A DNA stretch of 32,000 nucleotides from Geotalea uraniireducens Rf4 (lineage in GTDB: Bacteria > Desulfobacterota > Desulfuromonadia > Geobacterales > Geobacteraceae). The position numbers were made by a program, and so were the translations under genes. This document shows, piece by piece, positions 1,534-30,136 of the stretch. The DNA lies in the NCBI RefSeq assembly GCF_000016745.1, contig NC_009483.1:840001-872000 (forward strand). Direction: 5' to 3'. The notes under the pieces were generated by a model that ran no database searches, was not told where the DNA came from, and was given only the letters and a program-made list of their open reading frames with translations. Every line of letters starts with the position of its first letter. Positions within the stretch are counted from its first letter, which is position 1.

Positions 1534-3348
1534 GTGAATTTTTCAGACAGATTGAGGCATGAAGTTCTGGTAGGGGACGGCGCCATCGGCACGATGCTCT
1601 ATGCCAAAGGGGTCAGCCTCGATGCCAATTTCGAGCACCTCAACCTGGTCCGGCCGGAGCTGGTGCTGGGTCTGCATCAAGAATACGTGGCCGCCGGGGC
1701 GCAGGTGATCGAAACCAATACCTTTGGCGCCAACTATCCGAAGCTTCATGCCATAGGACTAGGCAACAAGGTTCATGACATCAACCTGAAAGGGGCGCTT
1801 CTCGCCCGCCGGGCTGCGGAAGGACGTGACGCGTTCGTGGCCGGTTCGATCGGACCTCTGGTAAAGCTCAAGGGGGAAGAAAGAGACCTCGGCGAGAGGG
1901 AGATGCTCGAAATCTTCCGCGCCCAGGTCACGGCGCTGACGGAAGGCGGGGTAGACCTGTTCATCCTTGAAACCTTTTCCGACCTGAGGCAGATTGAAAT
2001 CGCCCTTCAGGTGGCCAAGGAAACCGGATTGCCGGTCGTCGCCAATATGGCTTTCGGCGAGAACAGCCGCATCGCCGGCGGTATTGAAGCCGAGGCCGTG
2101 GCGGAAAGGCTTGCCGCGGCGGGTGCCGATGTGGTCGGCGCCAACTGCGGCGCAGGGCCGCTGGAGATACTGCGCACCGTCAAGCGGATGGGGGCAGTCA
2201 TTGAGCTCCCCATTGCTGCCTACCCGAACAGCGGCTTCCCGGAATACGTCGATGGCCGCTACATATATCGCGCCACCCCGGAGTATTTCGCCGGCATGGC
2301 TGCGGAAATGGTTGCCGTGGGCGCGGCCCTCGTCGGCGGTTGCTGCGGCACTACCCCTGCCCATATCATGCGGATTGCCGAGAAGGTCAGAGGCCTAAAG
2401 CCGGTGCCGCGCGCTCCCGCGCCCCCTGTGCACGCGGTGGAACGCGGCGGCGTGCGGGAGGGAACCGGGCCGGGCTTTCTCGCCGGATGGGGAAAAGAAA
2501 AGATCGTCACCGTCGAACTGGACCCGCCGAAGGGGCTTGACTGCAGCAAGGTGCTTATTGGCAGCCGGATACTGAAGGATGCCGGGGCGGACGCCATCAA
2601 CCTTGCCGAAAATCCTCTGGCGCGGGTACGGATGGGGAATATCGCATTGGCCAGCCTGATTCAGAAGGAGGTCGGCATCGAGGTAATCGTCCATATCACC
2701 TGTCGGGACCGCAACCTTCTCGGCCTTCAGTCTGATTTGATGGGGGCCAGCCTGCTCGGCATCCGCTCCATTCTGGCCGTTACCGGCGATCCGGCGAGCC
2801 TTGGAGAGCAGGCGGGGGCATCATCCGTATTCGATCTCAACTCCTTTACCCTGATAAAACTCCTCAACGGCCTCAATGGAGGGGTCAATGCCCTGGGGAA
2901 TCCCATCGGCAGCGGCACCCGCTTTACCATTGGCGCAGCCTTCAATCCCAACACCCAACGGATGGATGTCCAGGCCGGCCGGCTGGCAAAAAAGGTCGTA
3001 AACGGAGCCTGCTTTGCCCAGACCCAACCGATCTATGACGTGCAGCGCCTCGACGAAATGATTGAACAGACTGCGCACCTGGATATCCCCATCCTCCCCG
3101 GTATCTTGCCGCTGGTCAGCGAGAGGAACGCCGAATTTCTCCACAACGAGGTGCCGGGGATCATTATTCCCGAGGAGATCAGGATGCGGATGAGGGGGAA
3201 AGAGAAGGACGAGGGGGTACGGGAGGGGCTGGCCATTGCCCGCGAGTTTATTGCTGCCGTGCGGGAGCGGGTTGGCGGTTTCTACCTCATTCCTCCCTTC
3301 GGCAGATACGAGATTGCCGCAGAGCTGGTGAAATATATCAAGGGGTAA
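1534..3348 (+). CDS. yitJ: bifunctional homocysteine S-methyltransferase / 5,10-methylenetetrahydrofolate reductase (YitJ-type fusion)
   Basis: 604 aa. The N-terminal half carries the Zn-ligand motifs of the Hcy S-methyltransferase domain (GANCG, GGCCGTTP). The C-terminal half is MetF-like (VELDPPKG, HITCRDRN, LAVTGDP). GTG start preceded by GAGAGG. Confidence 0.85.
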   Translation: MNFSDRLRHEVLVGDGAIGTMLYAKGVSLDANFEHLNLVRPELVLGLHQEYVAAGAQVIETNTFGANYPKLHAIGLGNKVHDINLKGALLARRAAEGRDAFVAGSIGPLVKLKGEERDLGEREMLEIFRAQVTALTEGGVDLFILETFSDLRQIEIALQVAKETGLPVVANMAFGENSRIAGGIEAEAVAERLAAAGADVVGANCGAGPLEILRTVKRMGAVIELPIAAYPNSGFPEYVDGRYIYRATPEYFAGMAAEMVAVGAALVGGCCGTTPAHIMRIAEKVRGLKPVPRAPAPPVHAVERGGVREGTGPGFLAGWGKEKIVTVELDPPKGLDCSKVLIGSRILKDAGADAINLAENPLARVRMGNIALASLIQKEVGIEVIVHITCRDRNLLGLQSDLMGASLLGIRSILAVTGDPASLGEQAGASSVFDLNSFTLIKLLNGLNGGVNALGNPIGSGTRFTIGAAFNPNTQRMDVQAGRLAKKVVNGACFAQTQPIYDVQRLDEMIEQTAHLDIPILPGILPLVSERNAEFLHNEVPGIIIPEEIRMRMRGKEKDEGVREGLAIAREFIAAVRERVGGFYLIPPFGRYEIAAELVKYIKG

Positions 3349-6757: not shown

Positions 6758-7183
6758 TTATGCATCGCCCCACGGACTGTAAACCTTGGCCCTGCAGCGC
6801 TCGATATCCTTGACATTGCGCGTTACCACGATCAATCCGTGTGCCGTGGCCGTGGCAGCTATGAGTGAATCCATTACCGGCAGCTTTTCCCCCTTCCGTT
6901 CAGCATCCCCCTGAAGCGTTCCCCAGGCCAGAGCCGTTTCCAGGTCGAGATCAAGGATACGTCCGGCGAAACGCTCCGCAAGATCATGCTCGACCCACGC
7001 CTGAAGCTCATCTTTCCTGGTGCTGCCGGAAAGCTTGCTGATTCCCTTTTGCAGTTCTCCAAGGGTCAGGACACTCAGGAAAAGACCCTGCTCATCCTGT
7101 TCGTCCAGCCAGTTTACCACAGCGGCATTCGGTTCCTTTTTCACCAGCTCGGAGATCAGGCAGGTGTCGAGAAGAAATTTCAC
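6758..7183 (-). CDS. vapC: PIN-domain type II toxin VapC
   Basis: 141 aa. N-terminal FLLDT acidic motif, conserved D/E positions and C-terminal VVTRNVKDF-like motif (VVTRNVKDIERC). The GTG start overlaps the antitoxin stop (GTGA). Confidence 0.85.
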   Translation of the reverse strand: MKFLLDTCLISELVKKEPNAAVVNWLDEQDEQGLFLSVLTLGELQKGISKLSGSTRKDELQAWVEHDLAERFAGRILDLDLETALAWGTLQGDAERKGEKLPVMDSLIAATATAHGLIVVTRNVKDIERCRAKVYSPWGDA

Positions 7184-7461
7184 AGTTCCACCTCACGGGA
7201 GAAATCGGCACTGCGGCTGAGATCGAGCTCTGTATCATGAAGCGGTGATTGTCTGAAGAACTGCGATAACGTGGACCGCGGTTGAGTCAGCTTTTTGAAT
7301 TCCTCAAAAGAGACTAAGACCGCCGCCGGTTTGCCCCGCAAGGTGATGGTTTGCGGACCATCATGAAGAGCCGAGTCCACTACCTGGCTCAATCGGTTCT
7401 TGGCTTCCTGAAGCTGCCATTCACGTTCGTGGGGCAATCGGTCTTTTTTATTGGCTTTCAT
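7180..7461 (-). CDS. Phd/YefM-family antitoxin (VapB partner)
   Basis: WQLQEAKNRLSQVVDSA...GPQTITLRGKPAAVLVSFEEF is the Phd/YefM N-terminal fold. The ORF is open to 7527, but the ATG at 7461 has GGAGG 4 nt upstream. 4-bp overlap with vapC. Confidence 0.8.
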   Translation of the reverse strand: MKANKKDRLPHEREWQLQEAKNRLSQVVDSALHDGPQTITLRGKPAAVLVSFEEFKKLTQPRSTLSQFFRQSPLHDTELDLSRSADFSREVEL

Positions 7462-7475
7462 AACACCTCCGTAAT

Positions 7476-7488
7476 CTAGACGGTCTAG
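7476..7488 (-). promoter_or_regulatory. 13-bp palindrome CTAGACcGTCTAG, candidate VapB-VapC autoregulatory operator
   Basis: Perfect 6-1-6 palindrome lying 15-27 nt upstream of the antitoxin start. Type II TA operons are commonly autorepressed through such sites. Confidence 0.35.
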
Positions 7489-7635
7489 CCAGATAAGAAT
7501 ACCACGCTTTTGTAGTACAGGGAACAACTTTATCCTGGTCCTATGGCGAGGTGTATTTCATTGTCTTTTCATTGGGGGTACGAGGCTGACTAAACGGGTT
7601 CATTCATGGCAAAGTTCTTCAGAAATATCCATTGC

Positions 7636-7699: not shown

Positions 7700-8119
7700 C
7701 TAACCCTCTTCGTCCTCGCCCAGGGCAATTTCCCGGTAGGCGCGGTCCTCTTCGAAGCGCTTGGTCTGGGCCTGCAACTTCTCGATGTCCGCCTTGCACT
7801 TGACGCAGTAACGGGCAAAGGGCACGATCTTCAACCTGCCGAGAGGAATTTCTTCCTCGCACTCTTCGCAGATGCCGTATTCCCCTTCTTCGATCTTCAG
7901 CAATGCTTCGTCGATGTTCCGCAGTTTTTCCCGCTCACGGTCGTCGAGCAGCAGGCCCAGTTCACGGTCCCGCTCGCTGGACGCCTGATCGTAGATGTCA
8001 CCACTCGGCTCGTTGGTGGGGATATCGGAACCCGACTTCAGCGACTTGCTAATTTCGTTGATGGTCTCTTCCTTCATTTTGAGCAGAAGAGCTTTTATTT
8101 CATCCAGTTTTTCTACCAT
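7700..8119 (-). CDS. dksA: DksA/TraR-family C4 zinc-finger RNA-polymerase-binding regulator
   Basis: 139 aa. Coiled-coil region with a DxxDxA tip motif (DIYDQA) and a CxxC-x17-CxxC zinc finger (CEEC...CVKC). Confidence 0.8.
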   Translation of the reverse strand: MVEKLDEIKALLLKMKEETINEISKSLKSGSDIPTNEPSGDIYDQASSERDRELGLLLDDREREKLRNIDEALLKIEEGEYGICEECEEEIPLGRLKIVPFARYCVKCKADIEKLQAQTKRFEEDRAYREIALGEDEEG

Positions 8120-8230: not shown

Positions 8231-9577
8231 TCAGGGCACGATTTCACCGATCAGATCATAGTCGGAAGAATCGGTAATTCGCAGCTTGACGATATCGCCG
8301 ATCTGCGCGTTGCCCGAGGTGACATAGACCTGACCGTCTATGTCGGGGGCTTGTTTGGAGGAGCGTCCTTTCAGCAGTAATTCGGTTTCTTCACTGTATC
8401 CTTCAATCAACACCAGTTCCTCGGTGTCGACCAGACTGCGATTGTGTTTGAATGAAACCCGCGCCTGGGTGCGCATAAGTTTTTTATACCGCTCCCGTTT
8501 GACCCGCTCGGAAACCTGGTCCGGCATCTCAGCTGAAGGGGTCCCCTCCTCGCGGGAATAGCAGAATACTCCCAGCCGATCGAAGCGGGTTTCCTCGACG
8601 AAATGGAGGAGTTTTTTGAAATCTTCGTCCGTCTCCCCCGGGAAACCGACGATCAAGGACGTCCGCAAGGCAATTCCCGGTATTTCGCCGCGCAGTTTTG
8701 CGATGAGCGACCTGATTTCCGCTTCGCTGCTCCTCCGGTTCATCCTTTTGAGAACCGGGTCACTGACATGCTGGAGCGGGATATCCAGGTATTTGCAGAC
8801 CTTGTCTTCGTCCCTGATCAGCTGAATGAGGCTGTCGCTGATGCCGTCGGGATAGGCGTAAAGGAGTCTGATCCATTGCAGCCCGTCCAATGCGGCCAGT
8901 TCTTTTATCAGCCCTTCCAGTGATGCGCCGCCGGCCAGATCCTTGCCGTATCCGGTAATGTCCTGGGCGATGAGGTTGATTTCCTTCACCCCCCGTGCGA
9001 CCAGTTCCCTGGCCTCCTTGAGCAGCTTGTCCAGTGGACGGGAACGGAACGCGCCGCGCAGGGAGGGAATTACGCAGTACGAGCAGCAGTTGGAGCAACC
9101 TTCGGCGATTTTCAGGTAGGCGGTGTAATAGGGTGACGACTGCAGCCTGGGGAGATCCTCATCGTAAAGAAAGTTCGGGTCGCCGGTGTAGCGGAGCTGT
9201 TCGGACATCCCCTCCTTTTCGGCGATGATTTCAGCGATGCGCGGGTAGTCGCCGGTACCGACGAAGATATCCACTTCGGGCAGTTCCTTGACGAGTTCTT
9301 CCTGGTAGCGCTGCGGCAGACAACCGGTGACGATCAGCAGCCGGCAGCGGGCGTCGTGCTTGCGATCCGCCAGGTCGAGGATGGTGTCGATGCTCTCCTG
9401 TTTTGCTTCCTTGATGAATGAACAGGTGTTGACGATGATGATATCGGCTTCCCGTTCGTCGGTGGTGACTTCATATTTTTCCTTGGCCAGATAGCCGAGC
9501 ATGACCTCGGCGTCAACCAGGTTCTTCGGACAGCCGAGGCTGACCAGGCTTACTTTTTCCTTGATGCTTGTGCTCAA
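8231..9577 (-). CDS. rimO: ribosomal protein S12 methylthiotransferase RimO
   Basis: 448 aa. N-terminal MTTase domain ([11 protein letters not shown]), radical-SAM Cx3Cx2C (CSNCCSYC) and a C-terminal TRAM domain. TTG start with an AAAGGAG RBS. Confidence 0.9.
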
Positions 9578-9593
9578 AATTACTCCTTTTATA

Positions 9594-9691
9594 GTCGGTC
9601 GGCAGTCGGCAGTCGGCAGTCGGTGGATGGTAAAACCACCGACCGCCGACCATTAACCGCCGACCGCTTTTCTAACCGCCGACCGCTTTTC
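9594..9691. repeat. second locus of the GTCGGYR heptamer family, with a 15-bp hairpin and a 19-bp tandem duplication
   Basis: GTCGGCA x3 plus GTCGGTG (9598-9625). GTCGGCAGTCGGTGG (9612-9626) pairs with CCACCGACCGCCGAC (9636-9650) around a 9-nt loop; the one mismatch becomes a G-U pair in the minus-strand RNA. TAACCGCCGACCGCTTTTC is duplicated exactly at 9654-9672 and 9673-9691. The locus fills the whole yajQ-rimO intergenic space. Confidence 0.9.
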
Positions 9692-10176
9692 TATTGCCTG
9701 AAATTGACGAACTGCAGTTCGACGCCCAGGTCCTTCCCTTTCAGCAGCTGGATGACTTCCTGAAGGTCATCGATGTTTTTGCCGGTTACCCGCAGTTGAT
9801 CTTCCTGTATCTGGCTCTGGACCTTGAGTTTGGTTTCCTTTATGACGTTGTTGATCTCTTTCCCCTTTTCCTTGGAGATTCCCTGCTGGATGGTGATGAT
9901 CTGCCGCACCATCCCGCCGGAGGCGTTTTCCACCTTACCGTATTGGAGAGCCTTTACGGATATGCCCCGTTTGATGAACTTCGATTGCAGGATGTCGATG
10001 ATCGCCTTGAGCCGGAAATCGTCCTCGGAGAGAAGCTTGACGGTATCTTTTTCCTGGGTTATTTCGCTTTTCGAACCTTTAAAGTCGTAACGCTGGGCTA
10101 TCTCCTTGATGGTCTGGTTGACGGCGTTGTCCACTTCCTGCATGTCCACCTTGGAGACGATGTCGAATGACGGCAT
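9691..10176 (-). CDS. yajQ: YajQ-family (UPF0234) nucleotide / c-di-GMP-binding protein
   Basis: 161 aa. The N-terminus [21 protein letters not shown] and the overall length are characteristic of YajQ. GAGGAGG RBS. Confidence 0.85.
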
Positions 10177-10222: not shown

Positions 10223-10948
10223 TTACTTCTGTTCCTGATTTATTACTTCCACTCCGCTGGGTATTTTGAAGCTGAACCTGTCGTTTTTCATCCCCCGGTT
10301 GACCCGCACCTTGCTGAACTCTATGGCAGTCCGGTTACCGAATGCATCAAAAACAACAGAGGAGGCGATGGGGAAGGGATTCACCGCATGTCCTTCCTTG
10401 ATGAAGCTTTCAACGGCTTGTGATTCAATGGTCAGCTGGAGTTTTGCCATCGCCTGGCTCGGTTTTTTCGGAACCAGCTCAAGAACGTAATTCCCCTTTT
10501 TGTCGCGACCATCGGCAGCGAATTTTATGGCAAAATCCCTGGTGACATGACCCATGCCGGTCAGGTAGTCGAGCGCCACGGTGCTGCCGCCTTGAAACAG
10601 CGCGGTCACGTCGGATACCATCACTTGCTTGTTTTCGGGAAGGTAGTACCAGACTTTCTTGCCGTTGGAAATGATCTGCTGTTTGGGCCGGGTGTAGTTG
10701 AAGCGGAACATGGCGGTTGCGCCAGCCGGTTTTTTCATGAAGAGTTCGCCGGCACCACGCTCTTGCCGTTTCATGGAGGCAATGTCCGTGCGCTGGGAAA
10801 ATTCAGCCTGCACGTCTGCCAGGTTGTTGTATCCCTGTTCCAGGGTTTTGACTACATCCGCCAGCTCGGCGCCGAAACACTCCTTCGGCGAAGCGGACAG
10901 GGAGAGAATAAGGCATGCGACTAGCGATATAAGCAGTAACGGTTTCAT
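10223..10948 (-). CDS. secreted LolA-fold protein (outer-membrane lipoprotein carrier-like), paralog 1
   Basis: Signal peptide present. LolA-family core (FSQR...FRFNYTRPKQQIISNGKKVWYYLPENKQVMVSDV...GNYVLELVPKK). Colinear with the upstream paralog. Confidence 0.7.
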   Translation of the reverse strand: MKPLLLISLVACLILSLSASPKECFGAELADVVKTLEQGYNNLADVQAEFSQRTDIASMKRQERGAGELFMKKPAGATAMFRFNYTRPKQQIISNGKKVWYYLPENKQVMVSDVTALFQGGSTVALDYLTGMGHVTRDFAIKFAADGRDKKGNYVLELVPKKPSQAMAKLQLTIESQAVESFIKEGHAVNPFPIASSVVFDAFGNRTAIEFSKVRVNRGMKNDRFSFKIPSGVEVINQEQK

Positions 10949-10979
10949 TGGGCTTCCTGTTTAACGTGGTAATAATTGC

Positions 10980-11006
10980 AAAGGCGACATGCAGTATGTC
11001 GCCTTT
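10980..11006 (-). terminator. perfect 11-bp hairpin between the two LolA-like genes (attenuator or weak terminator)
   Basis: AAAGGCGACAT, 5-nt loop, ATGTCGCCTTT. On the minus strand it is followed by GCAATTATT, so there is no long U-tract. Confidence 0.35.
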
Positions 11007-11040
11007 AGCTTCTTCGTTCAGAATTACACGGGACCGGCCG

Positions 11041-11874
11041 TCACTGATGCGTGGGAGGCCTGACCACTTCGACCGCTGCCGGAACGGTGAATTCAAAAAG
11101 CTGGTCAGAAATCCTCGTGTCGGTCTTGACGTTGCTGAATTCCATGATGGTGGTGTTCCCTTGATGGTCGATGACCGTGGTTGAGAGAACGGGGAAGGCG
11201 GTCTGGTCCCTTTGAACGCTTCCCAAGGGCAAGCTGTTCAAAATCTGTCTGAATTCGTCTTCGGTCAATTGGCGGCCCAGCTGCATCCGCTTTTGCGTAT
11301 AGAGGTAGACTGCGTCGCGCTGGACGACGATGAAGAGCTTCTCGATGGTTGCTGTTGCCCGCCGCGGGTTCAGCTCCAGGATGTAATTACCTTCAATGTC
11401 CCGGCCTTGGGGGGAAAAGGTGGTCAGAAAGTCTCTGGATATGCGTCCCAGCCCCTGGAGGAAATTGGAGGCCCGGTTGCGGTCCGGGTTAAAACCCAAC
11501 GGGTTGAAGACAAAGCTGACATCGCTCTGGATGACCGTGCGGTTTTCCGAGAGGTACATCCACATGGTTATGCCGTTGCTGACGATTTCGTGGGTGGTGG
11601 GACGGAAATAGTCGAAACGGAACTTGAGGGGCTCGCTGTCACCGGCCGTTTTCAGGAACATCTGCCCTTCAGCGCGCATTTCCCGCTTTTTCTCCGCCAT
11701 GGTCGACCGCTGGAAAAAGTCGGTCGTTACGTCGGAGAGGACCCTGTAGGATTTTTCAACGGTATCGACCACGTCCTGAAGCCCGACATTGACCTGAGCA
11801 GTGACGGCGGCTTCAGCGCTGATCGCCATCTGCAGCAACAGCAAGAGGCTGATGAAGGCTCGCATGGTTCTCAT
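11041..11874 (-). CDS. secreted LolA-fold protein, paralog 2 (with an internal insertion)
   Basis: Signal peptide ending AISAEA|A. Core FFQR...FRFDYFRPTTHEIVSNGITMWMYLSENRTVIQSDV...GNYILELNPRR. Carries about 35 extra residues (YTQKRMQLGRQLTEDEFRQILNSLPLGS...) relative to paralog 1. GGAGGG RBS. Confidence 0.7.
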   Translation of the reverse strand: MRTMRAFISLLLLLQMAISAEAAVTAQVNVGLQDVVDTVEKSYRVLSDVTTDFFQRSTMAEKKREMRAEGQMFLKTAGDSEPLKFRFDYFRPTTHEIVSNGITMWMYLSENRTVIQSDVSFVFNPLGFNPDRNRASNFLQGLGRISRDFLTTFSPQGRDIEGNYILELNPRRATATIEKLFIVVQRDAVYLYTQKRMQLGRQLTEDEFRQILNSLPLGSVQRDQTAFPVLSTTVIDHQGNTTIMEFSNVKTDTRISDQLFEFTVPAAVEVVRPPTHQ

Positions 11875-11984
11875 ATTCCCTCCCCGATGCAGTAGGAAAA
11901 TGTTCTTTCCATTGAAATGTCAATATTGCCATAACTCTTGCAGCTGCGCAACCATCTTTTAAGAGGCTTTCCATGAGCCTGATT

Positions 11985-12593
11985 TCAGGCATCGATGGCA
12001 TTCAGAATAACATCGAGGGAAGGTGTTGCGGGCAGCAGGAAAAAATGACCGGAGGTCCGTTCATTGCCGATGGTAAATTCTGTTTCGATCATGAACGCCG
12101 CGTCACCGGCTTCACCCAGCGCAATGAGCACATCATCGACGATTGCTCCGGCCATGTCGAAGGAAAAGAGTGGAATCGAGGGGATGAGGGGCATTTTCAG
12201 CATGTTTCCCAGGGCGTTCAGGTATGCCGATGCCAGAATGTTGCCCACTTCCTTCAGCGTGGAAATTTCTAGTTCAGTCAGTGTCGTTCCTGTGGGTTGG
12301 TGGGGAGATAGAAGTTTCTCCAGAATTGACAAGGCATTATCTTTTGGAAAAACCATCAGGATATTGCCCCTGGCATTTCCCAGAATCTGAAGATAAATCC
12401 CGGCTACCATTAGTTCAGCTCCGCCGCATACTTTGGGGAGACTTGTTATATCCATGGCTATGACTTTGGGGACATTGAGGTATACGGTCTTTCCCATAAG
12501 CTGTGAAAGGGCGGTAGCGGCGTGACCCATGCCGATATTGCTCACCTCGCGCAGGGCATCAAGCTGCACTTCTGTTAACATGGTATTTCCCAT
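11985..12593 (-). CDS. cheC: CheC-type CheY-P phosphatase
   Basis: Two copies of the [D/S]xxxExxN active-site motif (DALREVSNIGMG and STLKEVGNILAS). About 200 aa. Confidence 0.8.
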   Translation of the reverse strand: MGNTMLTEVQLDALREVSNIGMGHAATALSQLMGKTVYLNVPKVIAMDITSLPKVCGGAELMVAGIYLQILGNARGNILMVFPKDNALSILEKLLSPHQPTGTTLTELEISTLKEVGNILASAYLNALGNMLKMPLIPSIPLFSFDMAGAIVDDVLIALGEAGDAAFMIETEFTIGNERTSGHFFLLPATPSLDVILNAIDA

Positions 12594-12622
12594 ATGGATA
12601 TCCCTTGTGTCCTTGTCGGAAT

Positions 12623-14257
12623 TTACATCAGGTTGGCAACGTCCAGGATGAAGACCACTTCTCCATTGCCGAGGATCGCCCCTCCTGTCAATCCTTTTAA
12701 CTTAACCAGAGGTCTGCCGAGTGGTTTTACGAAAAACTCCTGTTGGCCGATAAAACGGTCGACCACCAGTCCCACTTTGCGTCCCTTCACTTCGCTGACG
12801 AAAACGGGGATTGCCTCGCCGGTCAGATGGGAAAGCGGCAAACCGAAAATGCGGTTGAGGCTTACGAGCGGTATTGCCTCTTCCCCCATGTAAAAAACCT
12901 TGTGTTTCCCCTCGGTGGTTATCAGCCCGCGCTTGAGTTCCAGGGTGCGGATGATGTTGACTACCGGAACGGCGACCTTGAGGTGTGCGCAATTGACCAC
13001 AAGGGCCTGGATAATCGAGATGGTCAACGGCAGTTTAAGGGTTATTCTGCTCCCCTGCCCCAGGGTTGAATCTATCAGGATGTTGCCTCCGAGGGCTTTA
13101 ATGGCCGACTTGACGGCATCCATGCCGACGCCGCGCCCCGAAATCTCGGTCACCTCTTTAGCGGTGGAAAATCCCGGAACGCAGGTAAGCATCAAGGCTT
13201 CCCTGTGGGACAGAAGCCATCCCTCTTCCTGCTTGATAACCCCTTTTTCGATTGCGGAGGCGATCAGTTTTGCCGGGTCCATGCCCCTTCCGTCGTCTTC
13301 GACGGTAATGACCACCTGCTCCTTTTCCCTTCGCGCTGCCAGTCTGATTTTGCCCCGGCTGGACTTGCCGGCGGCTAGTCGTTCCTCCGTGGTTTCCACC
13401 CCATGGTCGACGGCATTTCGCAGGATGTGGATCAGTGGGTCGGAAAGCTCTTCCAGGATTCCCCGGTCAAGTTCAATCTCCCTGCCTTCCACTTCAAAGA
13501 CGATCTCTTTGCCGCTCTTTTTGGCCAGATCCCGTATCAGGCGGGGAAAACGGTCGGTAATTGCTGCAAAGGGGATCAGGCGGACCTTCATCACTTCGTC
13601 ATGGAGGCCGCGCAAAAGCTTCGATAGTTCCACACACGCCTCATCGAGGCTCCCCGAACCCAGCTGGCTGTTGATGGTCATGATCCGGTATTTGTTGGTT
13701 ATCAACTCGCCGGTCAGATTTATCAGCTGATCGAGGACATCGGTTTTTACCCTTACCGTTTGCGAGGCGTCACTGCCGGCTTGGCGTCCTTCATCTTTTC
13801 CTGAGGCGTTCAATGGAACCGGTTGCACCGGTGGCGGCTGTTCCGTTTTATGGGTCTTGATTGATGGTATTTCTGTGCTTGGCGGAGGGTAGTTGATGAG
13901 CCTCTGGACCAGACCACGAATGTCGCGGCTTGCCGGGGCGTCTTGTTCCACGTCTGCTATCATTGCCTCAAGCAGGTCGGTCCCTTCCAGCAGCAAGTCG
14001 GCTGCGCCCCCATCGAAAGGCAAGGCCCCCTTGCGGACCCGGTCCATGAGATCTTCAAGCTTATGGGCCAGTTCAGCTATGTCAGCGTACTCCATGGATG
14101 CGGCCATCCCTTTGATGGAATGGGCAATGCGAAACAGGGAATCTATTGTTTCCCGGTCACCGGCATCCTTTTCCAGGGCAACTATCAGTTCATTTATCGA
14201 ATTGAGATGCTCTCTGGATTCGGAGATGAACAGCTCCCTGTATTGGGACATGTCCAT
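12623..14257 (-). CDS. cheA: chemotaxis histidine kinase CheA (short form, no P2 domain)
   Basis: Hpt domain with the phospho-His motif FRIAHSIKG. A Pro-rich linker of about 50 aa runs into the dimerisation domain (VRVKTDVLDQLINLTGEL). HATPase domain (DDGRGMD, GRGVGMD) and a C-terminal CheW-like domain. Confidence 0.9.
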   Translation of the reverse strand: MDMSQYRELFISESREHLNSINELIVALEKDAGDRETIDSLFRIAHSIKGMAASMEYADIAELAHKLEDLMDRVRKGALPFDGGAADLLLEGTDLLEAMIADVEQDAPASRDIRGLVQRLINYPPPSTEIPSIKTHKTEQPPPVQPVPLNASGKDEGRQAGSDASQTVRVKTDVLDQLINLTGELITNKYRIMTINSQLGSGSLDEACVELSKLLRGLHDEVMKVRLIPFAAITDRFPRLIRDLAKKSGKEIVFEVEGREIELDRGILEELSDPLIHILRNAVDHGVETTEERLAAGKSSRGKIRLAARREKEQVVITVEDDGRGMDPAKLIASAIEKGVIKQEEGWLLSHREALMLTCVPGFSTAKEVTEISGRGVGMDAVKSAIKALGGNILIDSTLGQGSRITLKLPLTISIIQALVVNCAHLKVAVPVVNIIRTLELKRGLITTEGKHKVFYMGEEAIPLVSLNRIFGLPLSHLTGEAIPVFVSEVKGRKVGLVVDRFIGQQEFFVKPLGRPLVKLKGLTGGAILGNGEVVFILDVANLM

Positions 14258-14260
14258 GTA

Positions 14261-14626
14261 TCAGACTCCTGCAATCCTCTTGATTACTTCCTTCACCCGC
14301 TCGGGATTGAACGGCTTGAGAATAAAATCTTTCGCGCCTGCTGCATGGGCTGTCTGGGTCAGCGCTTCCTGGCCGATGGCACTGCACATCACTACTTTAG
14401 CCCCACCGTCAAGAGCCATGATTTCCGTAAGGGCCTCGATGCCGTTTTTGGTTGGCATGATTATATCCATGGTGGTAATGTCAGGGCGGCATTCCTGGTA
14501 TTTTGCGACTGCTTCGATGCCATCGGCCGCTTCTGCAATAACCTGATAGCCATCTTCTTCAAGAATGCCCCGCAGCATTTTTCTCATGAAAAGCGAGTCG
14601 TCCACAATCATCAGCTTAATGTCCAT
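14261..14626 (-). CDS. cheY: CheY-like single-domain response regulator
   Basis: 121 aa. Receiver motifs: acidic pocket (IVDDS), phospho-Asp (ITTMDIIMP), and the conserved Lys in ILKPF. Confidence 0.9.
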   Translation of the reverse strand: MDIKLMIVDDSLFMRKMLRGILEEDGYQVIAEAADGIEAVAKYQECRPDITTMDIIMPTKNGIEALTEIMALDGGAKVVMCSAIGQEALTQTAHAAGAKDFILKPFNPERVKEVIKRIAGV

Positions 14627-14673
14627 AGTGTACCTCCATCGGCTCGGCTTTCACCAGCTTCCCACGCTTGAAA

Positions 14674-15102
14674 TCAGTCGTTAATAGTTGCTTCCAGCTT
14701 TTGTATAAGATTGTCCAGCGCCAGCAGCCTGATTTTGTCAGTGCCGTTGTGAAGCAGCTCTGCGGTCATCTCATCATCGACGGCAGATTCTCTCCGCAAT
14801 GATTCTGCCGAAACAATGGAGATCACGCTGTCAACCCAGAGGGCGAGGTTCGCAAGACGGCTGTCCAGAACCAGGACTTTTCCTTCGGGGGTAAGGTTCC
14901 CCATATTTTGAAAATTTGCCAGATCGAGGACGGAGGTCAGGTTGCCGTGAAAGTTCATGATGCCAACGAAATGACCCGGTGCGCAAGGGATTGGAAAGGT
15001 CGGCGGCGGTTCAACGACTTCTGCCACGTCCTGCAGATCCAGGGCATATTGTGCCCCCCGCAGGGCAAAAATAAGATATCGCGCCGTACCGTTGTTCTTC
15101 AT
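14674..15102 (-). CDS. cheW: CheW coupling protein
   Basis: 142-aa CheW-like domain ([15 protein letters not shown] ... [16 protein letters not shown]). Its ATG overlaps the MCP stop (ATGA). Confidence 0.85.
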
Positions 15103-16379
15103 AGAGCCAGCTGGGCGCCGCCGGGAACCTTGAATTGTTCGACGATCGTCAGTAGTTCTTCAGCGAGCTTTGTCAGTTCTGCGGTGGCATGGACCATCTC
15201 CTGCATGGCGGCCGACTGCTCTTCCGTTGCCGCTGAAACCTCTTCGGTGGAAGCTGCATTATCTTCCGCCACCTTGGCGATTTCATCGATCATCGACACC
15301 ATCTTTTCGGCACCGGCGGTTTGCATCTGGGAGAGGTCGGCGATACTGTTCGTCTTGCGCTCGGTTTCGATGACCGTGTTGAGAATCTCGCGGAATGACT
15401 CTGCCGTGGTATCGATGTTTTTCTTGCCCGCGCTGATGTTCCGGGAACTATCGGCGATGGTTTCGTGGACCCTGCGGCTTTCTTCCTTGACCATTGCGAT
15501 CAGCTCGATGATGTCTGCTGCCGATTTTCCTGCTCCGTCTGCAAGCTTTCTTACTTCTTCGGCTACAACGGCAAAGCCCTTGCCGTATTCGCCGGCCCGT
15601 GCCGCTTCAATTGATGCGTTGAGGGCAAGCAGATTTGTCTGTCTGGCGATTTCACCTATAAAATCGGCGATCTTTCCCACTTGCTGTAACTTGGTGTTCA
15701 AATCCATAAACTGCATGCCGATCAGTTCCACACTGTCGAAGAAAGATTTCATCCGTGTCAGCGAATCCTTGGCCAGGTCACCACCCCTTTGGGCCGTAAG
15801 ACTGGTTTCGCGGGCGGCCTTTGACGCTTCCCTGGCTCTCCGGGCTATTAAATCTACGGAAATGGCCATTTCGTGGATGACCTTGGAACTTTTTGTCACC
15901 ATTTCCGCCTGGGTTTCAGCTCCCCGGGATATCTGCTCCACGGCCTGCGCCACCTCTTCGGAAGACGCATTGATTTCCAGTGCGGAAGAAGAGATGGTGC
16001 GGGATGATTCGGATACGTTCTCGGAAGTTCCCCGGATATGTTTAACGAGTTCGCGCAGGTTCCCAACCATCCGGTTGATGGAAACGGCCATTTCGTGGGT
16101 TTCATCGAGGAAGACCGAATTTCGGGTGACGATGTCTTTGGTCAGGTCTCCCTGGCTTATGTCTTCGGTCGCTGCGGTCAAGAGGGAGATGTTCTTCGTA
16201 AAGCTCTTGGAAAAAATCCAGCCGAGGATGAGGCCGATGGTCATGGCAACCGCATAGGAAAGGATATTGGTGATTTCCGGCGAGTAACCGAGGTGCTTGA
16301 CACCGTCGGGAACAAAAGCGACCGATGCTACAACTACGATAAATCCCAAAATGAACTTATACCCTATGGGGATATGCAT
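15099..16379 (-). CDS. methyl-accepting chemotaxis protein with a minimal periplasmic loop
   Basis: Two N-terminal TM helices separated by about 15 residues, then HAMP, then the signalling hairpin [38 protein letters not shown]. There is no C-terminal NWETF-type pentapeptide. GGAGGG RBS. Confidence 0.9.
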
Positions 16380-16554
16380 GACACCCTCCTATTTGACAGC
16401 TTCGTCAAAAATCCATTACGGCGTTGCTTTGTCGCGCCGGTGTTCGCATACACATAGTGCATGCTCCGCTGCTAGCCCTTAACACCATGCTCATGGAGTT
16501 TCTCTGCGCCGTTCTTATTGAACCCTCGTCTGCGGATTTTGTCGCTTCATTATT

Positions 16555-16570
16555 AGCACATGTCGTGCCA
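16555..16570 (-). promoter_or_regulatory. sigma54 (-24/-12) promoter candidate upstream of the mcp-cheW-cheY-cheA-cheC genes
   Basis: Minus strand reads TGGCACGACATGTGCT, against the consensus TGGCACG-N4-TTGCW. The GG and GC dinucleotides have the correct spacing. It lies about 175 nt upstream of the MCP ATG, in the 223-nt cheR-mcp gap. Confidence 0.45.
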
Positions 16571-16602
16571 TATGTGTTGTCGATGGCGGTCGTTTTTAAA
16601 AA

Positions 16603-17523
16603 CTACAGGACTTGGTAAATGCGTTCTACCGGGCAGATTGTTTTAAAACGCCTGCGGGAGTTTCCGACAAGGGTTTCCGATTTGCCCAGTACCAGTATGC
16701 CTCCACTGGGCAGGACATTGGCAAAACCTTCAAGAATTTTTTCCTGTTGTGATCGCTCAAAATAGATGAGGACATTACGGCACAGGATGAGATCGCTCAT
16801 TACATAGGTGCTGACATCGTAGAGATCGCCCTGCCTGAAAGTAACCAGCTTTTTAATTTCCGGCAGCAGATGGTACTTTGACTCTATCCGGTCAAAATAG
16901 CGTGTTTTTATCGACTCGGACATCTCCGACAATCGATCTTCGTTGTATGCCGCCGTCCTTGCCACTTCCAAGGTCCCTGCGTCAACATCGGTCGCCAGGA
17001 TCGAGACATTGACCACTTTCATCTCGGCACCGAAGGTATCATTCAGTATCAGTGCAAGGGTGTACGGCTCTTCCCCGCCGGCGCAGCCGACGCTCCAAAG
17101 CCTGAGGTCGCGACGTCCCTCATTGTTGCACCGGGTAAAGAGTTCGGGGAATATATCATTTTTCAGCTTTTCAAAGGTGGGCGGATTCCTGAAAAAATGA
17201 CTGACATGAATCGTCAGCACCTTAAGCAGAAGTTCCAGTTCCGACTCGTTATTCAGAAGAAGCTCGCAGTAGGCTTCGGCAGTATTGCTGTGGGTTGCTC
17301 TTATCCTGATGCTGATTCGTCGTTTTATGCACTTGTCTTTGTAACAGTCAAGGTTAAACCCCTTCAGGTTTTTCAGTATTTTACCGATCGTTTCGAAGGC
17401 TTCGGAAGAGATGTCGGGAGAACTTCTTTCCGGCAGGCCGATTATCTTTATGGTGGGTTTGCTCATCTCAGAAGGCATTAGCTGGCGGTGGATAAGAATC
17501 GGTTGTCCAACTGCATTGCGCAC
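16603..17523 (-). CDS. cheR: CheR-type MCP glutamate O-methyltransferase
   Basis: CheR N-terminal helical domain followed by a SAM-binding domain (LRLWSVGCAGGEEPYTLA, ILCRNVLIYF). The start is uncertain: ATGs at 17523, 17478 and 17466 all lack a clear SD. Confidence 0.85.
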   Translation of the reverse strand: MRNAVGQPILIHRQLMPSEMSKPTIKIIGLPERSSPDISSEAFETIGKILKNLKGFNLDCYKDKCIKRRISIRIRATHSNTAEAYCELLLNNESELELLLKVLTIHVSHFFRNPPTFEKLKNDIFPELFTRCNNEGRRDLRLWSVGCAGGEEPYTLALILNDTFGAEMKVVNVSILATDVDAGTLEVARTAAYNEDRLSEMSESIKTRYFDRIESKYHLLPEIKKLVTFRQGDLYDVSTYVMSDLILCRNVLIYFERSQQEKILEGFANVLPSGGILVLGKSETLVGNSRRRFKTICPVERIYQVL

Positions 17524-17720
17524 TGTCGGTTGTATGAATGAGGGTCGCCGGGATCAGGGTGGGCATGAAGCAAACCTTTGCATTGGAAGCGATTGGATAA
17601 CGCTCGAAACTACGACGTTCATAGCAAGTTGTGTCACAAAAGTCAATCTGCTGTAACGGGGGGCTTTGATTGTTACGGGCTGTTGTATTGCCGAATGAGA
17701 CCATGGCCGGTGGCCTGATG

Positions 17721-18059
17721 TCATCGTGCATGGAGTTCTTCGCAAAGCATATTGTAGCTGTCTTCTCCCGCGACAAACCGGGTTATCCTGACACCCATGC
17801 CACTTTTTTTGACGAGCCGCACCATGTTTGCCGGCACCTTTTTGGCCCACATCACGCGGGCTTCCAGTGTGACGATGTTCTCTTCGCTTAGCGCAAGATC
17901 AATTTTGATCTTGCTTCCAGGCGGAGCGACGTTTGCTGTTTTGATGAACATCCCCTGATGGGAGATATCTTCCGTAAAGGCAAAACGGTCGGATTCCTGA
18001 AGACCGAATTTTAAGGTCAGTCTTTTACGATGTCTTCTGATGTTCCGTTTGTCCGCCAT
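17721..18059 (-). CDS. PilZ-domain c-di-GMP receptor
   Basis: 112 aa with both halves of the PilZ c-di-GMP motif: RRHRKR (RxxxR) and DISHQG (DxSxxG). Confidence 0.8.
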   Translation of the reverse strand: MADKRNIRRHRKRLTLKFGLQESDRFAFTEDISHQGMFIKTANVAPPGSKIKIDLALSEENIVTLEARVMWAKKVPANMVRLVKKSGMGVRITRFVAGEDSYNMLCEELHAR

Positions 18060-18202
18060 GTTTGGCCTGCCCTTCCCGGTAAAAACTGCCGTAGATTACC
18101 ATATATTTCGCATAAGTAAAAAGAAAACTGTGCCGGCAGCTGTTGCGAGAAGATAGTTCCGCGGCAGTTCAGGGGAGGGCGACGTTTAAGATGGCGGCGA
18201 CG

Positions 18203-18925
18203 TTACTCCTTGGTTTGCAGCAGGTTTTTCACCCTGTCCACCCGGAATACATACCAGGTATCCGCTTCCGCCATTCGACGCTCGGATTCGGTAGAAACCA
18301 GCCCCTCAAGGGTTACCACATAATTGCGGCAGGTAACGCGGATCTGGGTGGCGTTGACAAAGGGGTCCTTTTCCAGCATCAGCCTGATCGCATCAACGAC
18401 TTCATCGTCGTTGTCCTCTTCAGGCGGCGCTACTTCCAGTCCGTTTACAACATCACTGCTTCCCGGCACCCACCATGCCAGCACCCCTGTAATCCGTTTC
18501 TGTGAGAGGCTGCCGACCTGGCCGTTCAATGTCACCACCCCGTTGATCACCTCCACTTCAATGGCGCCAAACGGGGTGACCGGTTCCCTGACGGTTTCCA
18601 TGCTTCCTTTTATCAGAGCCCTGATGGCATAGGCTTCCAGAAGCTGTTCCGAAAGGAGGGCGTTACAGACGTGATCGCGGATTTCGCCGTCCTCCATCTG
18701 CTCGGCGGGCTGAACGTGGAGCCGATCAACGATTGCCGAAACGCCGGGAACGGCGCCTGCAATTTCCAGGGCAATCTTTTTTGCAGCGATATCTCCCGTC
18801 TCCCCAGTCAGTGTCGCTACCCCGTCAAGGTAGTCGATTTGAATCGGGTAGGCGTGGAGGTTGACAAGAGTCTCTTGTTCAAGTGATGCCGCGATTCTCC
18901 GGATGATTTCGTCTGCACTCTTCAT
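18203..18925 (-). CDS. BON-domain protein (OsmY/DolP-like; roughly 2-3 BON repeats, no obvious signal peptide)
   Basis: Repeated BON pattern '...V..GV.TL.G.V.s...k..a...a..v.GV..V.n.L.V': YLDGVATLTGETGDIAAKKIALEIAGAVPGVSAIVDRLHV, and VINGVVTLNGQVGSLSQKRITGVLAWWVPGSSDVVNGLEV, plus a third partial repeat. Confidence 0.75.
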   Translation of the reverse strand: MKSADEIIRRIAASLEQETLVNLHAYPIQIDYLDGVATLTGETGDIAAKKIALEIAGAVPGVSAIVDRLHVQPAEQMEDGEIRDHVCNALLSEQLLEAYAIRALIKGSMETVREPVTPFGAIEVEVINGVVTLNGQVGSLSQKRITGVLAWWVPGSSDVVNGLEVAPPEEDNDDEVVDAIRLMLEKDPFVNATQIRVTCRNYVVTLEGLVSTESERRMAEADTWYVFRVDRVKNLLQTKE

Positions 18926-19086: not shown

Positions 19087-19524
19087 TTACACCATCTCTT
19101 CCAGCTCATGCTCCGCGATCTGGACGATTTCCAGGTAAATAGCGATCATGACGCCGACCTCGCACCATTTTTTGGCGATGGAGCGGAGCAGTGACCAGCC
19201 GTTCACCACCGTGCCGGAAAAGAGCAGGATGCCGATCATCCTGTCTTCTTCACAGGTCATCAGGAACACGGAATAGACGGCAATGGTCAGCATCGAAGCG
19301 AGCCAGGCCAGCTCCGGCCCCTTGAACGGGTTCGACATGACCTTGAGGTAGTCGATATAATAACGGCTGAGCCCCCCGACTTTCTGCAGAAATTCGCCCA
19401 CTTCATCTTTTCCCTGCTTCAGATAGGCGTAGGAAAGAAACCGTTCCTTTGCCCGTTCTTTTCCCCCGGTCATCCGTTCATGGACATATTTGTCGATCGC
19501 TTCATCAATTACCTGAGTATTCAT
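19087..19524 (-). CDS. hypothetical membrane protein
   Basis: 145 aa from the ATG at 19524, which has GAGGTG 6 nt upstream (the ORF is open to a GTG at 19533). A soluble charged N-terminal half is followed by 2-3 hydrophobic segments. No family recognised. Confidence 0.5.
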   Translation of the reverse strand: MNTQVIDEAIDKYVHERMTGGKERAKERFLSYAYLKQGKDEVGEFLQKVGGLSRYYIDYLKVMSNPFKGPELAWLASMLTIAVYSVFLMTCEEDRMIGILLFSGTVVNGWSLLRSIAKKWCEVGVMIAIYLEIVQIAEHELEEMV

Positions 19525-19768
19525 GGCCGCCACCTCTTGGTTCCTGAGCTGAGTATCCCAACCCTCCGGTTCTTAAGAACACATCCCTTTGCAGGATTTT
19601 AAATACATAAATCGTGCCGGTATTATGAGGGGTGAAAGTGAAGGCTGTGTAAAGGTAATTATACCCGATTTCGCGGGATTTTCTCCGGCAAATTTGTGTG
19701 ACCATGCCTGTGAATTTTCGGAAAAATACGAGATGTTTTTTTGCATCGCTGCGAGATTGATTGGTTCA

Positions 19769-25741: not shown

Positions 25742-25781
25742 ATCTGTGTTTCTGTTAATCGATGGATGGGGTGAGCGACCG

Positions 25782-27020
25782 GTGAAAGTCACTGTTCTCA
25801 AAAAACTGACAATCTTTGCACTGCCTGCCATGTTGCTCGTGGCGGCATACTTGTCGCTTCCTCACATTGCCGCCCTCTCTCCAGCCCAGCGCGAGCTTGC
25901 ATTGTTTTCCCCCTATCTGGTCGTCGTTGTCGGGATGTCTCTGAGTTTCGCCTTCGGCCGCGGCCGGGTTTTCTTCATCCTGCTTCTCCAAGGAATTTTT
26001 TACTGGAGTTTTCGCACCTACCTGCAAAACGGCATAAACGGCTTTGCTCCCCAGGTGGTGTTTCAGTCGCTCTGCCTGCTCCTTCCCCTCAACATCACCC
26101 TCTTCTCCTTCATACGCGAACGGGGGGTGATGACCGTCTCCGGCCGGATGCGCTTTATTTTCCTGGCTTTGCAAGCGGCAATGGTCGCCTGGATCATCAG
26201 GTACCAGCACGACTACAGCGATCTGCCGCTTTTTTTATCCGCGAAATTCCTCCACTTCCCCTTCATTTCAGATCTGACGCTTCCCCAGCCAGCTTTGCTC
26301 CTGATAGTTGCGGGCATTCTCCTCATCTTTATCCGTGCGTTCACCAGGCAATCCCCCATCGACAGCGGCCTCCTCGGCTCTCTGGTTGCCGTTGCCGTTG
26401 CCTGCAACTGGTTGGCGAGCACGGATGTCCCCCTTGTTTTCATCTCCGCAGCCGCATTGATACTCTCCGTAAGCGTCCTCCAGGACTCCCACAACATGGC
26501 TTATCGCGACGATCTGACCGGGTTGCCGTCGCGGCGCGCCCTGAACGAGCAGATGTTGGGCGTGGGGAGGCAATATGTGATCGCCATGCTCGACGTCGAT
26601 CATTTCAAGAGCTTCAACGATAGTTACGGTCACGATGTGGGGGACCAGGTGTTGAAGATGGTGGCGAAGAAGATGGCGGCGGTCAAGGGGGGAGGCAAGG
26701 CATACCGTTACGGCGGCGAGGAATTCACCATCCTCATGCCGCGCAAAAAGATGGCCGAGGCCATTCCCTTTCTGGAAGAGGTGCGAAAGAACATCGCCAC
26801 TTATCAGCTTGTGCTGCGAGGCAACGACCGCCCCAAAGAAGCGAAAGAGGGGAAAAAGCTGCGCGCCTCCGAACGTGGCGACAAGTCCGTGTCGGTGACC
26901 ATCAGCATCGGCGTTGCCGAGAGCAGCGATAGCCTGAGAAGCGCCGAAGAGGTACTCAAGGCGGCGGACAAGGCCCTCTACCGGGCAAAGAGCAAGGGAC
27001 GAAACCAGCTGAGTAAATAA
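25782..27020 (+). CDS. membrane-anchored diguanylate cyclase (multi-TM N-terminal domain + GGDEF)
   Basis: About 6-7 TM segments, then a GGDEF domain (DDLTGLPSRRAL, DVDHFKSFND, active-site RYGGEEF). The GTG at 25782 has GGGGTGAG 6 nt upstream. The longest ORF starts at GTG 25746. Confidence 0.85.
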   Translation: MKVTVLKKLTIFALPAMLLVAAYLSLPHIAALSPAQRELALFSPYLVVVVGMSLSFAFGRGRVFFILLLQGIFYWSFRTYLQNGINGFAPQVVFQSLCLLLPLNITLFSFIRERGVMTVSGRMRFIFLALQAAMVAWIIRYQHDYSDLPLFLSAKFLHFPFISDLTLPQPALLLIVAGILLIFIRAFTRQSPIDSGLLGSLVAVAVACNWLASTDVPLVFISAAALILSVSVLQDSHNMAYRDDLTGLPSRRALNEQMLGVGRQYVIAMLDVDHFKSFNDSYGHDVGDQVLKMVAKKMAAVKGGGKAYRYGGEEFTILMPRKKMAEAIPFLEEVRKNIATYQLVLRGNDRPKEAKEGKKLRASERGDKSVSVTISIGVAESSDSLRSAEEVLKAADKALYRAKSKGRNQLSK

Positions 27021-27228
27021 ACATAAGTATTAGGTCTTTTTATTGATTTTGCTGCCGCCACGTGCGAAGATGCAGCCGCTGAATTTTTTCATGGAGTGGT
27101 GCTAGTTCAGACATGCAAATCCAGGCCTTTAAAGCTACCGCGAAGCGGATTGGTTCAACTAATTTTTTAAGCGGAAAGTTGTCTTTTGGACCTGTATTTT
27201 TGTCGCATCTTCCAATAAAGAGCATGCC

Positions 27229-29224: not shown

Positions 29225-29277
29225 ATTGAGGGGGATTTAGATTTTAGTTGCCAACTCCAAAAAAACAGGAATCGAAT

Positions 29278-30086: not shown

Positions 30087-30136
30087 CTCTGCGAATACAT
30101 CACTCGATACATAAAGATATCCGATTGGAGGGTTTC

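Follow-up and report, generated by a model that had tools for sequence, protein, structure and literature searches.

The Dif system of Myxococcus xanthus and the Dif-like clusters of Geobacter species are the closest described counterparts of the chemosensory gene cluster considered here, which lies on the minus strand of a 32,000-nucleotide stretch of Geotalea uraniireducens Rf4 (NC_009483.1, positions 840,001 to 872,000; hereafter the window, in whose numbering all coordinates are given). In M. xanthus, the receptor DifA has been assigned to class 44H (Moine, 2014), the kinase DifE phosphorylates EpsW, which acts in turn on the phosphoglycosyl transferase EpsZ, DifD together with DifG forms a phosphate sink, and the input is possibly pilus-related (PMC12802240, PMC4671073). 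Tran et al. (2008, PMC2577667) argue that receptors with a tiny periplasmic domain sense via partner proteins and that lipid sensing involves Dif. The same study classed cluster 1 of G. uraniireducens and cluster 6 of G. sulfurreducens as “Dif-like”, identified Gura0724 and GSU3196 as the sole class 44H receptors of their respective genomes, and described the Geobacter variant as having CheR where DifB would be; LolA is absent from its text. Co-transcription of the 44H methyl-accepting chemotaxis protein (MCP) gene with lolA in Desulfuromonadales was predicted later (Aklujkar et al., 2012, PMC3543383). The cluster in the window is the published Dif-like cluster 1, since its MCP sequence is printed verbatim as Gura0724 in supplement file 2 of Tran et al. 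(2008). The preliminary description of this DNA had put it forward as an undescribed system, a view that has to be given up because the cluster was published in 2008 and the prediction of 44H MCP-lolA co-transcription was noted in 2012.

The explanation that we consider likely is that the cluster is an orthologue of dif in which cheR stands in for difB, cheD and the P2 domain of CheA have been lost, the adjoining LolA-like genes are inherited neighbours, and the output is something other than motility. What is new here are the counts of che-LolA adjacency, the use of thiL and larB-larC as a control for such adjacency, the persistence of LolA after loss of the che genes, the distribution of the neighbours, with BON and PilZ in Geotalea only, and the finding that loss of P2 from CheA is derived in Geobacteraceae.

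Thirteen minus-strand open reading frames (ORFs), with domains assigned by Pfam and NCBIfam, occupy the region in the order BON, PilZ, CheR, MCP, CheW, CheY, CheA, CheC, LolA-like 1 (LolA1), LolA-like 2 (LolA2), YajQ, RimO and DksA, so that the gene calls, order, strand and coordinates of the preliminary description are confirmed. The receptor methyltransferase gene cheR (16603..17523; Pfam CheR 5.9e-52, CheR_N 1.8e-10) has its longest ORF beginning at a GTG at 17523, its true start being likely the ATG at about 17466. It is followed by the DifA-like mcp (15099..16379; Pfam MCPsignal 3.1e-39 and HAMP), whose product combines a HAMP and an MA domain with two transmembrane segments. Hydropathy puts these hydrophobic stretches at about residues 8-24 and 38-57, with a periplasmic loop of about 14 residues between them, in agreement with the roughly 15 noted earlier; the class of this receptor, 44H, is that given to Gura0724 by Tran et al. 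(2008). The stop of mcp and the start of the DifC-like cheW (14674..15102; Pfam CheW 7.5e-17) share a 4-nt ATGA overlap, and a gap of only 3 nt separates cheA from cheY (14261..14626; Pfam Response_reg 4.5e-27), which encodes a DifD-like single-domain response regulator that keeps the acidic pocket and lysine (D9, D10, D54 and K104); both junctions are as first described. The DifE-like CheA (12623..14257; Pfam Hpt, H-kinase_dim, HATPase_c and CheW) is built as P1-linker-P3-P4-P5, with H46 inside the HSIKG motif and a Pro-rich linker of 59 residues as all that separates P1 from P3. The DifG-like CheY-P phosphatase CheC (11985..12593; Pfam CheC 7.4e-18) also matches the NCBIfam model CheC_Thtogales at 5.2e-43, under that model’s cut-off, and has both [DS]xxxExxN-x22-P active-site motifs intact, at residues 12 and 111.

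Among the main non-overlapping ORFs of the 32-kb window, Pfam detected neither CheB nor CheD nor any domain typical of flagella or pili, and tblastn with the CheD of a relative found no match in it, as the preliminary description had maintained; neither linked flagellar or motor genes nor a CheB/CheR pair, the hallmarks of flagellar chemotaxis, occur in these 32 kb. All thirteen genes are under purifying selection when compared with the closest metagenome-assembled genome (MAG), L085, with ratios of nonsynonymous to synonymous substitution rates (dN/dS) of 0.02-0.29. For the che genes the values are 0.05-0.29, and these, together with LolA1, evolve faster than YajQ, RimO and DksA. Purifying selection and the intact catalytic residues of CheC, CheY and CheA indicate that the cluster is functional in the G. 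uraniireducens lineage, though it is eroded in several others.

A CheA-based scan of species-representative genomes, with a best match of 52%, returned Desulfuromonadales loci, many Myxococcota dif loci, and archaeal and Firmicute systems of the CheC/CheD type. Identities to the Myxococcus dif loci are 34-39% for the MCP, 52-53% for CheY, 42-58% for CheA and 33-42% for CheC, close to the values in the table of Tran et al. (2008). These loci are ordered MCP-DifB-CheW-CheY-CheA-CheC, so that M. xanthus Dif shares with the window the succession MCP-CheW-CheY-CheA-CheC on one strand, a 44H receptor that spans the membrane twice around a minimal loop, a CheC-type phosphatase and the lack of CheB. 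The two differ in that Dif has DifB (a YjbR-domain protein in the Myxococcota locus L019), in whose place the window has CheR, in that DifE keeps the P2 domain missing from the window’s CheA, and in what lies downstream, larB-larC in Myxococcus and the LolA-like genes, yajQ and rimO in the window. Searching with DifB by tblastn gave no match in the Desulfuromonadales loci, and the overlap of mcp with cheW in the window leaves no DifB between them. Because thiL stands directly upstream both in Myxococcota and in most Desulfuromonadales (including L090, L101 and L045), the two sets of loci probably go back to one ancestral che/dif locus.

In the P3-P5 part, the window’s CheA is 40-49% identical to CheAs of Methanosarcinales, Firmicutes, Synergistetes and Thermotogae, and its best NCBIfam CheA model is an archaeal one. 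The 44H systems of Bacillus, Thermotoga and archaea of the CheC/CheD type share CheC and the receptor class with the window, which, unlike them, has no flagellar or archaellar link, CheB, CheD, P2 or receptor sensing domain, and its function is expected, in contrast to theirs, to be unrelated to motility. We take those archaeal and Firmicute systems to be class F1 in the scheme of Wuichet and Zhulin and not the alternative cellular function class proper. The preliminary description had assigned the cluster to the alternative-function pathways; this holds insofar as it is a non-flagellar, Dif-like 44H cluster, and is tempered by a CheA that is nearest to the archaeal and Firmicute CheC/CheD types.

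Closer still is cluster 6 of G. sulfurreducens (about GSU3195-GSU3201, with the MCP GSU3196, cheY44H and cheD44H), which is orthologous to the window cluster and occupies the same place, ahead of LolA1-LolA2-yajQ-rimO-dksA; in the related L090 and L101 loci CheA lacks P2 as it does in the window. This G. sulfurreducens-type form keeps cheD and an upstream thiL, whereas G. uraniireducens has lost cheD and has BON-PilZ. Another chemosensory system of G. sulfurreducens, the electrode-sensing network Esn (EsnABCD), was considered as a counterpart and rejected, as it works with a 40H receptor, GSU2220 and GSU2222 being its CheW and CheA.

That the absence of P2, noted at the outset, is a real loss follows from the Pfam P2 model (PF07194) itself, which matches the orthologous CheA of L045 and L006 and Myxococcus DifE and finds no match in the CheA of the window or of L090. 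In every Geobacteraceae locus examined P2 was undetected in CheA. Where CheA has P2 there is one LolA gene, and RimO at these loci, which we take to be non-Geobacteraceae Desulfuromonadales, reaches only about 60% identity to that of the window; where CheA lacks P2 there are two LolA genes, at Geobacteraceae-type loci. The loss is thus derived in Geobacteraceae, and the tandem pair of LolA genes appears together with it.

The conservation of the che-LolA neighbourhood was assessed with a LolA1 profile search, which recovered 79 metagenome loci, 60 of them with enough upstream DNA to judge; some of the 60 are near-duplicates and they do not represent as many independent observations. In 59 of the 60, the first gene detected upstream of the LolA-like gene was a che gene (CheD in 28, CheA in 23, CheC in 7 and CheR in one), the gap from CheD to LolA being mostly 16-47 nt, and RimO identity to the window across these LolA-centred loci ranged from 59 to 99%. 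The same arrangement occurs in all the Desulfuromonadales genome loci found through CheA. Whether the block is conserved among relatives, a question posed in the preliminary description, is thereby answered, and a synteny restricted to this one genome is clearly refuted.

Within this constancy the loci vary in content. The MAG L085, with proteins 82-98% identical to those of the window, has the window’s gene order, and BON-PilZ-CheR recurs in this order in four Geotalea-type loci; G. daltonii (L083) reads BON-PilZ-CheR-MCP-CheW-CheA-LolA1-LolA2-YajQ-RimO-DksA, with CheY and CheC missing. Geomonas RF6 has aminotransferase-CheR-MCP-CheW-CheY-CheA-CheC-LolA-YajQ-RimO-DksA, with one LolA gene and neither BON nor PilZ; the single LolA of Geomonas and of L002 is of the LolA2 type, the LolA1 type being absent. 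A single LolA gene is also present in L045 and other non-Geobacteraceae Desulfuromonadales loci. A fuller set is seen in a Desulfuromonadales MAG, Lon-ThiL-CheR-MCP-CheW-CheY-CheA-CheC-CheD-LolA1-LolA2-YajQ-RimO-DksA, with 15 nt between cheD and lolA1. Elsewhere the chemosensory genes have been lost piecemeal: L104, L107 and G. daltonii keep MCP, CheW and CheA and lack CheY, CheC and/or CheD; G. hydrogenophilus has ThiL-CheR-CheY-CheC-CheD-LolA1-LolA2, without MCP, CheW and CheA; L096 and L102 have kept LolA1 with receptor and kinase gone; and Geobacter sp. DSM 9736 has ThiL-LolA1-LolA2-YajQ-RimO-DksA with zero che genes at the locus. One further clade (L001-L003, L114, L115, L121-L134) has only gatB-CheY-CheA-LolA1-LolA2, its CheA lacking P2; the CheY-CheA pair is intact there and the cluster contains no receptor, CheW or CheR.

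How such adjacency should be read is decided by the genes that flank the same cluster in other lineages. In Myxococcota (L019-L044 and others) and in L004-L006, L037, L043 and L077, a group of loci that includes ones labelled Deltaproteobacteria or Thermodesulfobacteriota, thiL precedes the dif cluster and larB-larC follow it. The latter are AIR (aminoimidazole ribonucleotide) carboxylase-like and nickel-insertion (nickel-pincer cofactor) genes. The locus as a whole is deeply conserved, without an evident functional rationale. Since thiL and larB-larC are as constant beside the cluster as LolA is, conserved adjacency is weak evidence, and if constancy meant partnership, thiL and larBC would have to be Dif partners too. 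The rearrangements seen in Desulfuromonadales are few and lie at the upstream edge, where thiL has given way to gatB in one clade and to BON-PilZ in Geotalea, the window itself having BON-PilZ where relatives have thiL. The position of LolA probably reflects one ancestral rearrangement in Desulfuromonadales, inherited since. Of the proposed coupling of the che genes to LolA, then, the order-wide adjacency stands, but it is unspecific, being shared by thiL and larB-larC, and LolA outlasts the loss of the che genes.

The two LolA-like proteins of the window both have hydrophobic N-termini (predicted secreted), and they differ in their likeness to LolA of Escherichia coli and Pseudomonas aeruginosa. 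LolA2 (10223..10948) passes the cut-off of the lolA equivalog model TIGR00547 (117.4 bits against 112), aligns over its full length with P. aeruginosa LolA (2w7q, 8.6e-14), has the canonical FSQ motif and no insertion, and by these features looks like a working LolA. LolA1 (11041..11874; Pfam LolA 3.4e-13), which matches a protein annotated as LolA family in Geotalea uraniireducens with 100% identity, falls short of that cut-off with 75.2 bits and yet keeps a LolA-like fold: its AlphaFold2 model (mean predicted local distance difference test score, 84.9) contains a three-helix insertion of about 40 residues, and Foldseek places LolA crystal structures on top (target-normalised TM-score 0.72-0.80), the match to RseB (E ~3e-6) being much weaker than that to true LolA. 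In a neighbour-joining tree rooted on three gammaproteobacterial outgroups, LolA1 grouped with the single che-adjacent LolA copies, which follow cheD in other Desulfuromonadales and share its FFQ motif and helical insertion, in 90 of 100 bootstraps, and with LolA2 in 6 of 100. The window thus has two tandem copies, and G. sulfurreducens has a third elsewhere, GSU3483 (623 bp), beside the LolB-annotated GSU0457 and fabZ-1 (Chan, 2017). GSU3203, which from gene numbering and the L090 architecture we infer to be the LolA2 orthologue, is in the transposon-sequencing ‘essential’ table of that organism, with 245 reads at 3 sites, and GSU3483 is on this list too; the LolA1-type, MCP, CheW, CheA and CheC genes are missing from it (Chan, 2017, Tables S2 and S4). 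The idea that LolA2 is the housekeeping LolA and LolA1 a recent tandem copy was dropped after the tree grouping and the third LolA.

Several observations weigh against regarding the cluster simply as a dif orthologue beside inherited neighbours. The short gap between CheD and LolA, together with the persistence of the arrangement in loci with a RimO identity of only about 60%, is what one would classically expect of a shared operon, which often goes with a shared function. The gene that actually adjoins the che genes (LolA1 or one of the single copies) is not the most canonical LolA but a derived paralogue carrying an insertion, and because GSU3483 adjoins a LolB-like gene, the che-adjacent copies need not be the basic Lol chaperone. 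At the other edge of the cluster, the PilZ and cheR genes share 4 nt in both G. daltonii and L085, an arrangement suggestive of translational coupling in these two genomes. Finally, an output in matrix or extracellular polysaccharide (EPS) production is drawn purely from homology, as the searched literature contains no experiment on Geobacter Dif-like clusters (no functional study of GSU3194-3204, Gura_0724 or Pcar_0032 was found in it).

The LolA observations could mean that the LolA1-type protein is a genuine part of the Dif-like pathway, either as a sensor in the periplasm that detects the acyl chains of lipids or lipoproteins on behalf of the loop-less receptor or as a co-expressed output in envelope remodelling. 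The adjacency counts, short gaps and depth of conservation given above would suit this, as would the distinct, derived clade formed by LolA1 and the single copies, the presence in G. sulfurreducens of a separate LolA beside a LolB-like gene, and the co-transcription predicted by Aklujkar et al. (2012); so would the argument of Tran et al. (2008) on partner-protein sensing and lipid sensing by Dif, for which binding-protein-dependent receptors and RseB offer precedents. The latter, the LolA-fold periplasmic stress sensor of the sigma-E pathway, is the protein to which Foldseek matched the LolA1 model; it has a role in signaling, not transport. No anti-sigma partner is present at the locus in the window, and RseB is relevant only as precedent for this speculative reading. 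Yet the adjacency can be traced to one ancestral event and is matched by that of the unrelated thiL and larB-larC, LolA1 persists without any che genes in DSM 9736 and without receptor and kinase in G. hydrogenophilus, L096 and L102, the Geomonas cluster is complete though the LolA1 type is absent, and Myxococcus Dif works with no LolA neighbour. We therefore regard participation of LolA1 as unlikely; more probably, the LolA-like proteins serve the envelope in a role separate from the pathway, of which they are no demonstrated input or output.

A second alternative concerns the two genes upstream of cheR, which the preliminary description had counted among the partners of the pathway. The PilZ protein (17721..18059; Pfam PilZ 9.8e-09, with a TIGR02266 match under cut-off) has intact motifs, RxxxR at residues 5 and 9 and DxSxxG in the form DISHQG at residue 31, from which binding of cyclic di-GMP (c-di-GMP) is predicted, and the BON protein (18203..18925; Pfam BON 1.6e-33) consists of three BON stretches. 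Because the latter has neither a signal peptide nor a hydrophobic N-terminus, unlike periplasmic BON proteins of the OsmY type, it is probably cytoplasmic. In Geotalea, PilZ, and perhaps BON, may have been recruited so as to tie c-di-GMP to receptor methylation or kinase activity; the intact PilZ motifs, the overlap of the PilZ stop with the cheR start in G. daltonii and L085, the BON-PilZ-CheR order in the four Geotalea-type loci and dN/dS values of 0.12-0.17 are all consistent with this. But the arrangement is that of a single genus, BON and PilZ lying next to the cluster only in Geotalea (L083, L085 and L091) and thiL, gatB or an aminotransferase gene taking their place in the other relatives, and in G. 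uraniireducens itself PilZ and cheR are separated by about 200 nt (17524-17720). We consider such recruitment quite improbable, and neither protein is retained as a member of a partner set.

Very improbable, lastly, is that the cluster lacks a separate output and represents a rudimentary or auxiliary module, feeding or depending on the major Che systems and heading for loss, for although the mosaic losses in Geobacteraceae (G. daltonii, the gatB clade, G. hydrogenophilus, DSM 9736), the lack of CheB and CheD and the closeness of CheA to archaeal and Firmicute motility-type CheAs lend it some color, all eight genes of the che cluster are intact and under purifying selection, MCP and CheY are 92-93% identical to those of L085, a 44H receptor is not expected in arrays of 34H, 36H or 40H receptors (Tran et al., 2008, PMC2577667; Moine, 2014), and flagellar genes are absent nearby.

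By homology with Dif, the pathway may be pictured as follows. The 44H receptor has almost no periplasmic domain and would, for this reason, probably sense through a partner protein or the membrane. It would form a complex with CheW and the P2-less CheA, which would autophosphorylate at H46 and pass the phosphate to the clustered CheY; together with CheC, this CheY would most likely act as a phosphate sink that damps the signal, as DifD and DifG do. CheA would probably also phosphorylate an EpsW-like orphan single-domain response regulator encoded elsewhere (the window contains no candidate for EpsW or EpsZ), and this orphan regulator would control the production of EPS or matrix and not motility. 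CheR would methylate the receptor, with the enzymes for demethylation and deamidation encoded elsewhere or the step dispensed with. The loss of CheY and CheC from loci that keep MCP, CheW and CheA, together with the loss of P2, fits the sink model. The matrix or EPS output, the phosphate-sink role and the co-transcription considered next are what we infer from these comparisons.

Transcription of the region offers few fixed points. Intergenic minus-strand terminator-like sites were found only at 19041-19022, before BON, and at 7667-7649, after dksA; a weak consensus scan gave none at the che-LolA, LolA-LolA and LolA-yajQ junctions. The spacers between cheC and lolA1 (110 nt) and between lolA1 and lolA2 (92 nt) leave room enough for promoters, and the LolA-like genes are probably transcribed with the che genes or just after them. 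The hairpin at 19041-19022, with 8 pairs, 7 of them G-C, followed by a T run, follows the gene for a GSU0071-family protein (19087-19533; NCBIfam 7.6e-64) and is the strongest terminator-like site of the region, at the upstream end of a possible BON-to-dksA stretch. The spacer between cheR and mcp, 223 nt in the window (16380-16602), 149 nt in L085 and 44 nt in G. daltonii, contains at 16556..16570 on the minus strand the sigma54-like -24/-12 motif TGGCACGACATGTGC, with GG-N10-GC spacing and starting 191 nt upstream of the MCP ATG. The promoter first proposed here is thus present as a motif, but since this recurs only in the near-identical contig L091 and in none of the other relatives checked, being confined to the species and that contig, it is a candidate only. 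Rfam revealed no riboswitch or small RNA in the long spacers of the window, and ARAGORN no tRNA.

Downstream of the LolA-like genes, and likewise on the minus strand, lie yajQ/DUF520 (9691-10176; NCBIfam NF003819, 220.7 bits against a cut-off of 146), rimO (8231-9577; Pfam/NCBIfam) and a dksA-like gene (7700-8119; Pfam/NCBIfam), whose products are 88-98% identical to those of L083 and L085 and 71-84% identical to those of other Geobacteraceae-type loci, with dN/dS of 0.02-0.06. They adjoin LolA even where every che gene is gone. YajQ, RimO and DksA thus rank as neighbours that evolve slowly and are widely conserved, and the suggestion that YajQ is a partner of the pathway is not supported. Between the dksA-like and Fer4 genes, the minus strand carries a PIN-domain toxin (6758-7183) and a Phd/YefM antitoxin (7180-7527), a pair that looks like a species-specific insertion because in L083 and L085 dksA is followed directly by Fer4. 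Further off, a protein of 604 residues encoded at 1534-3348 is a fusion of homocysteine S-methyltransferase and methylenetetrahydrofolate reductase; a small ORF and a NIR_SIR-domain protein follow it, in an order kept in G. daltonii, L085 and Geomonas. A separate signaling patch occupies the plus strand at 25746-31747, with a GGDEF protein (25746-27020) whose N-terminal 250 residues have no domain assignment, a 7TMR-DISM histidine kinase (27229-29163), a LuxR-type response regulator (29248-29961) and a 540-residue protein of CarboxypepD_reg-type repeats (30125-31747).

As such, the rediscovery of a published cluster matters little. Of wider use is the control provided by thiL and larB-larC, from which it follows that conserved adjacency around the che/dif cluster cannot be read as function. 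A derived LolA-fold gene placed tightly behind the che cluster throughout the order is nevertheless a cheap and testable lead: if LolA1 were the sensing partner, the state of envelope lipids or lipoproteins would be relayed through the kinase to the matrix, and this would be the first molecular input known for a Dif-type system. For the Geobacteraceae, a P2-less CheA and the recurrent disappearance of CheY and CheC predict that the real output of the cluster is an orphan response regulator.

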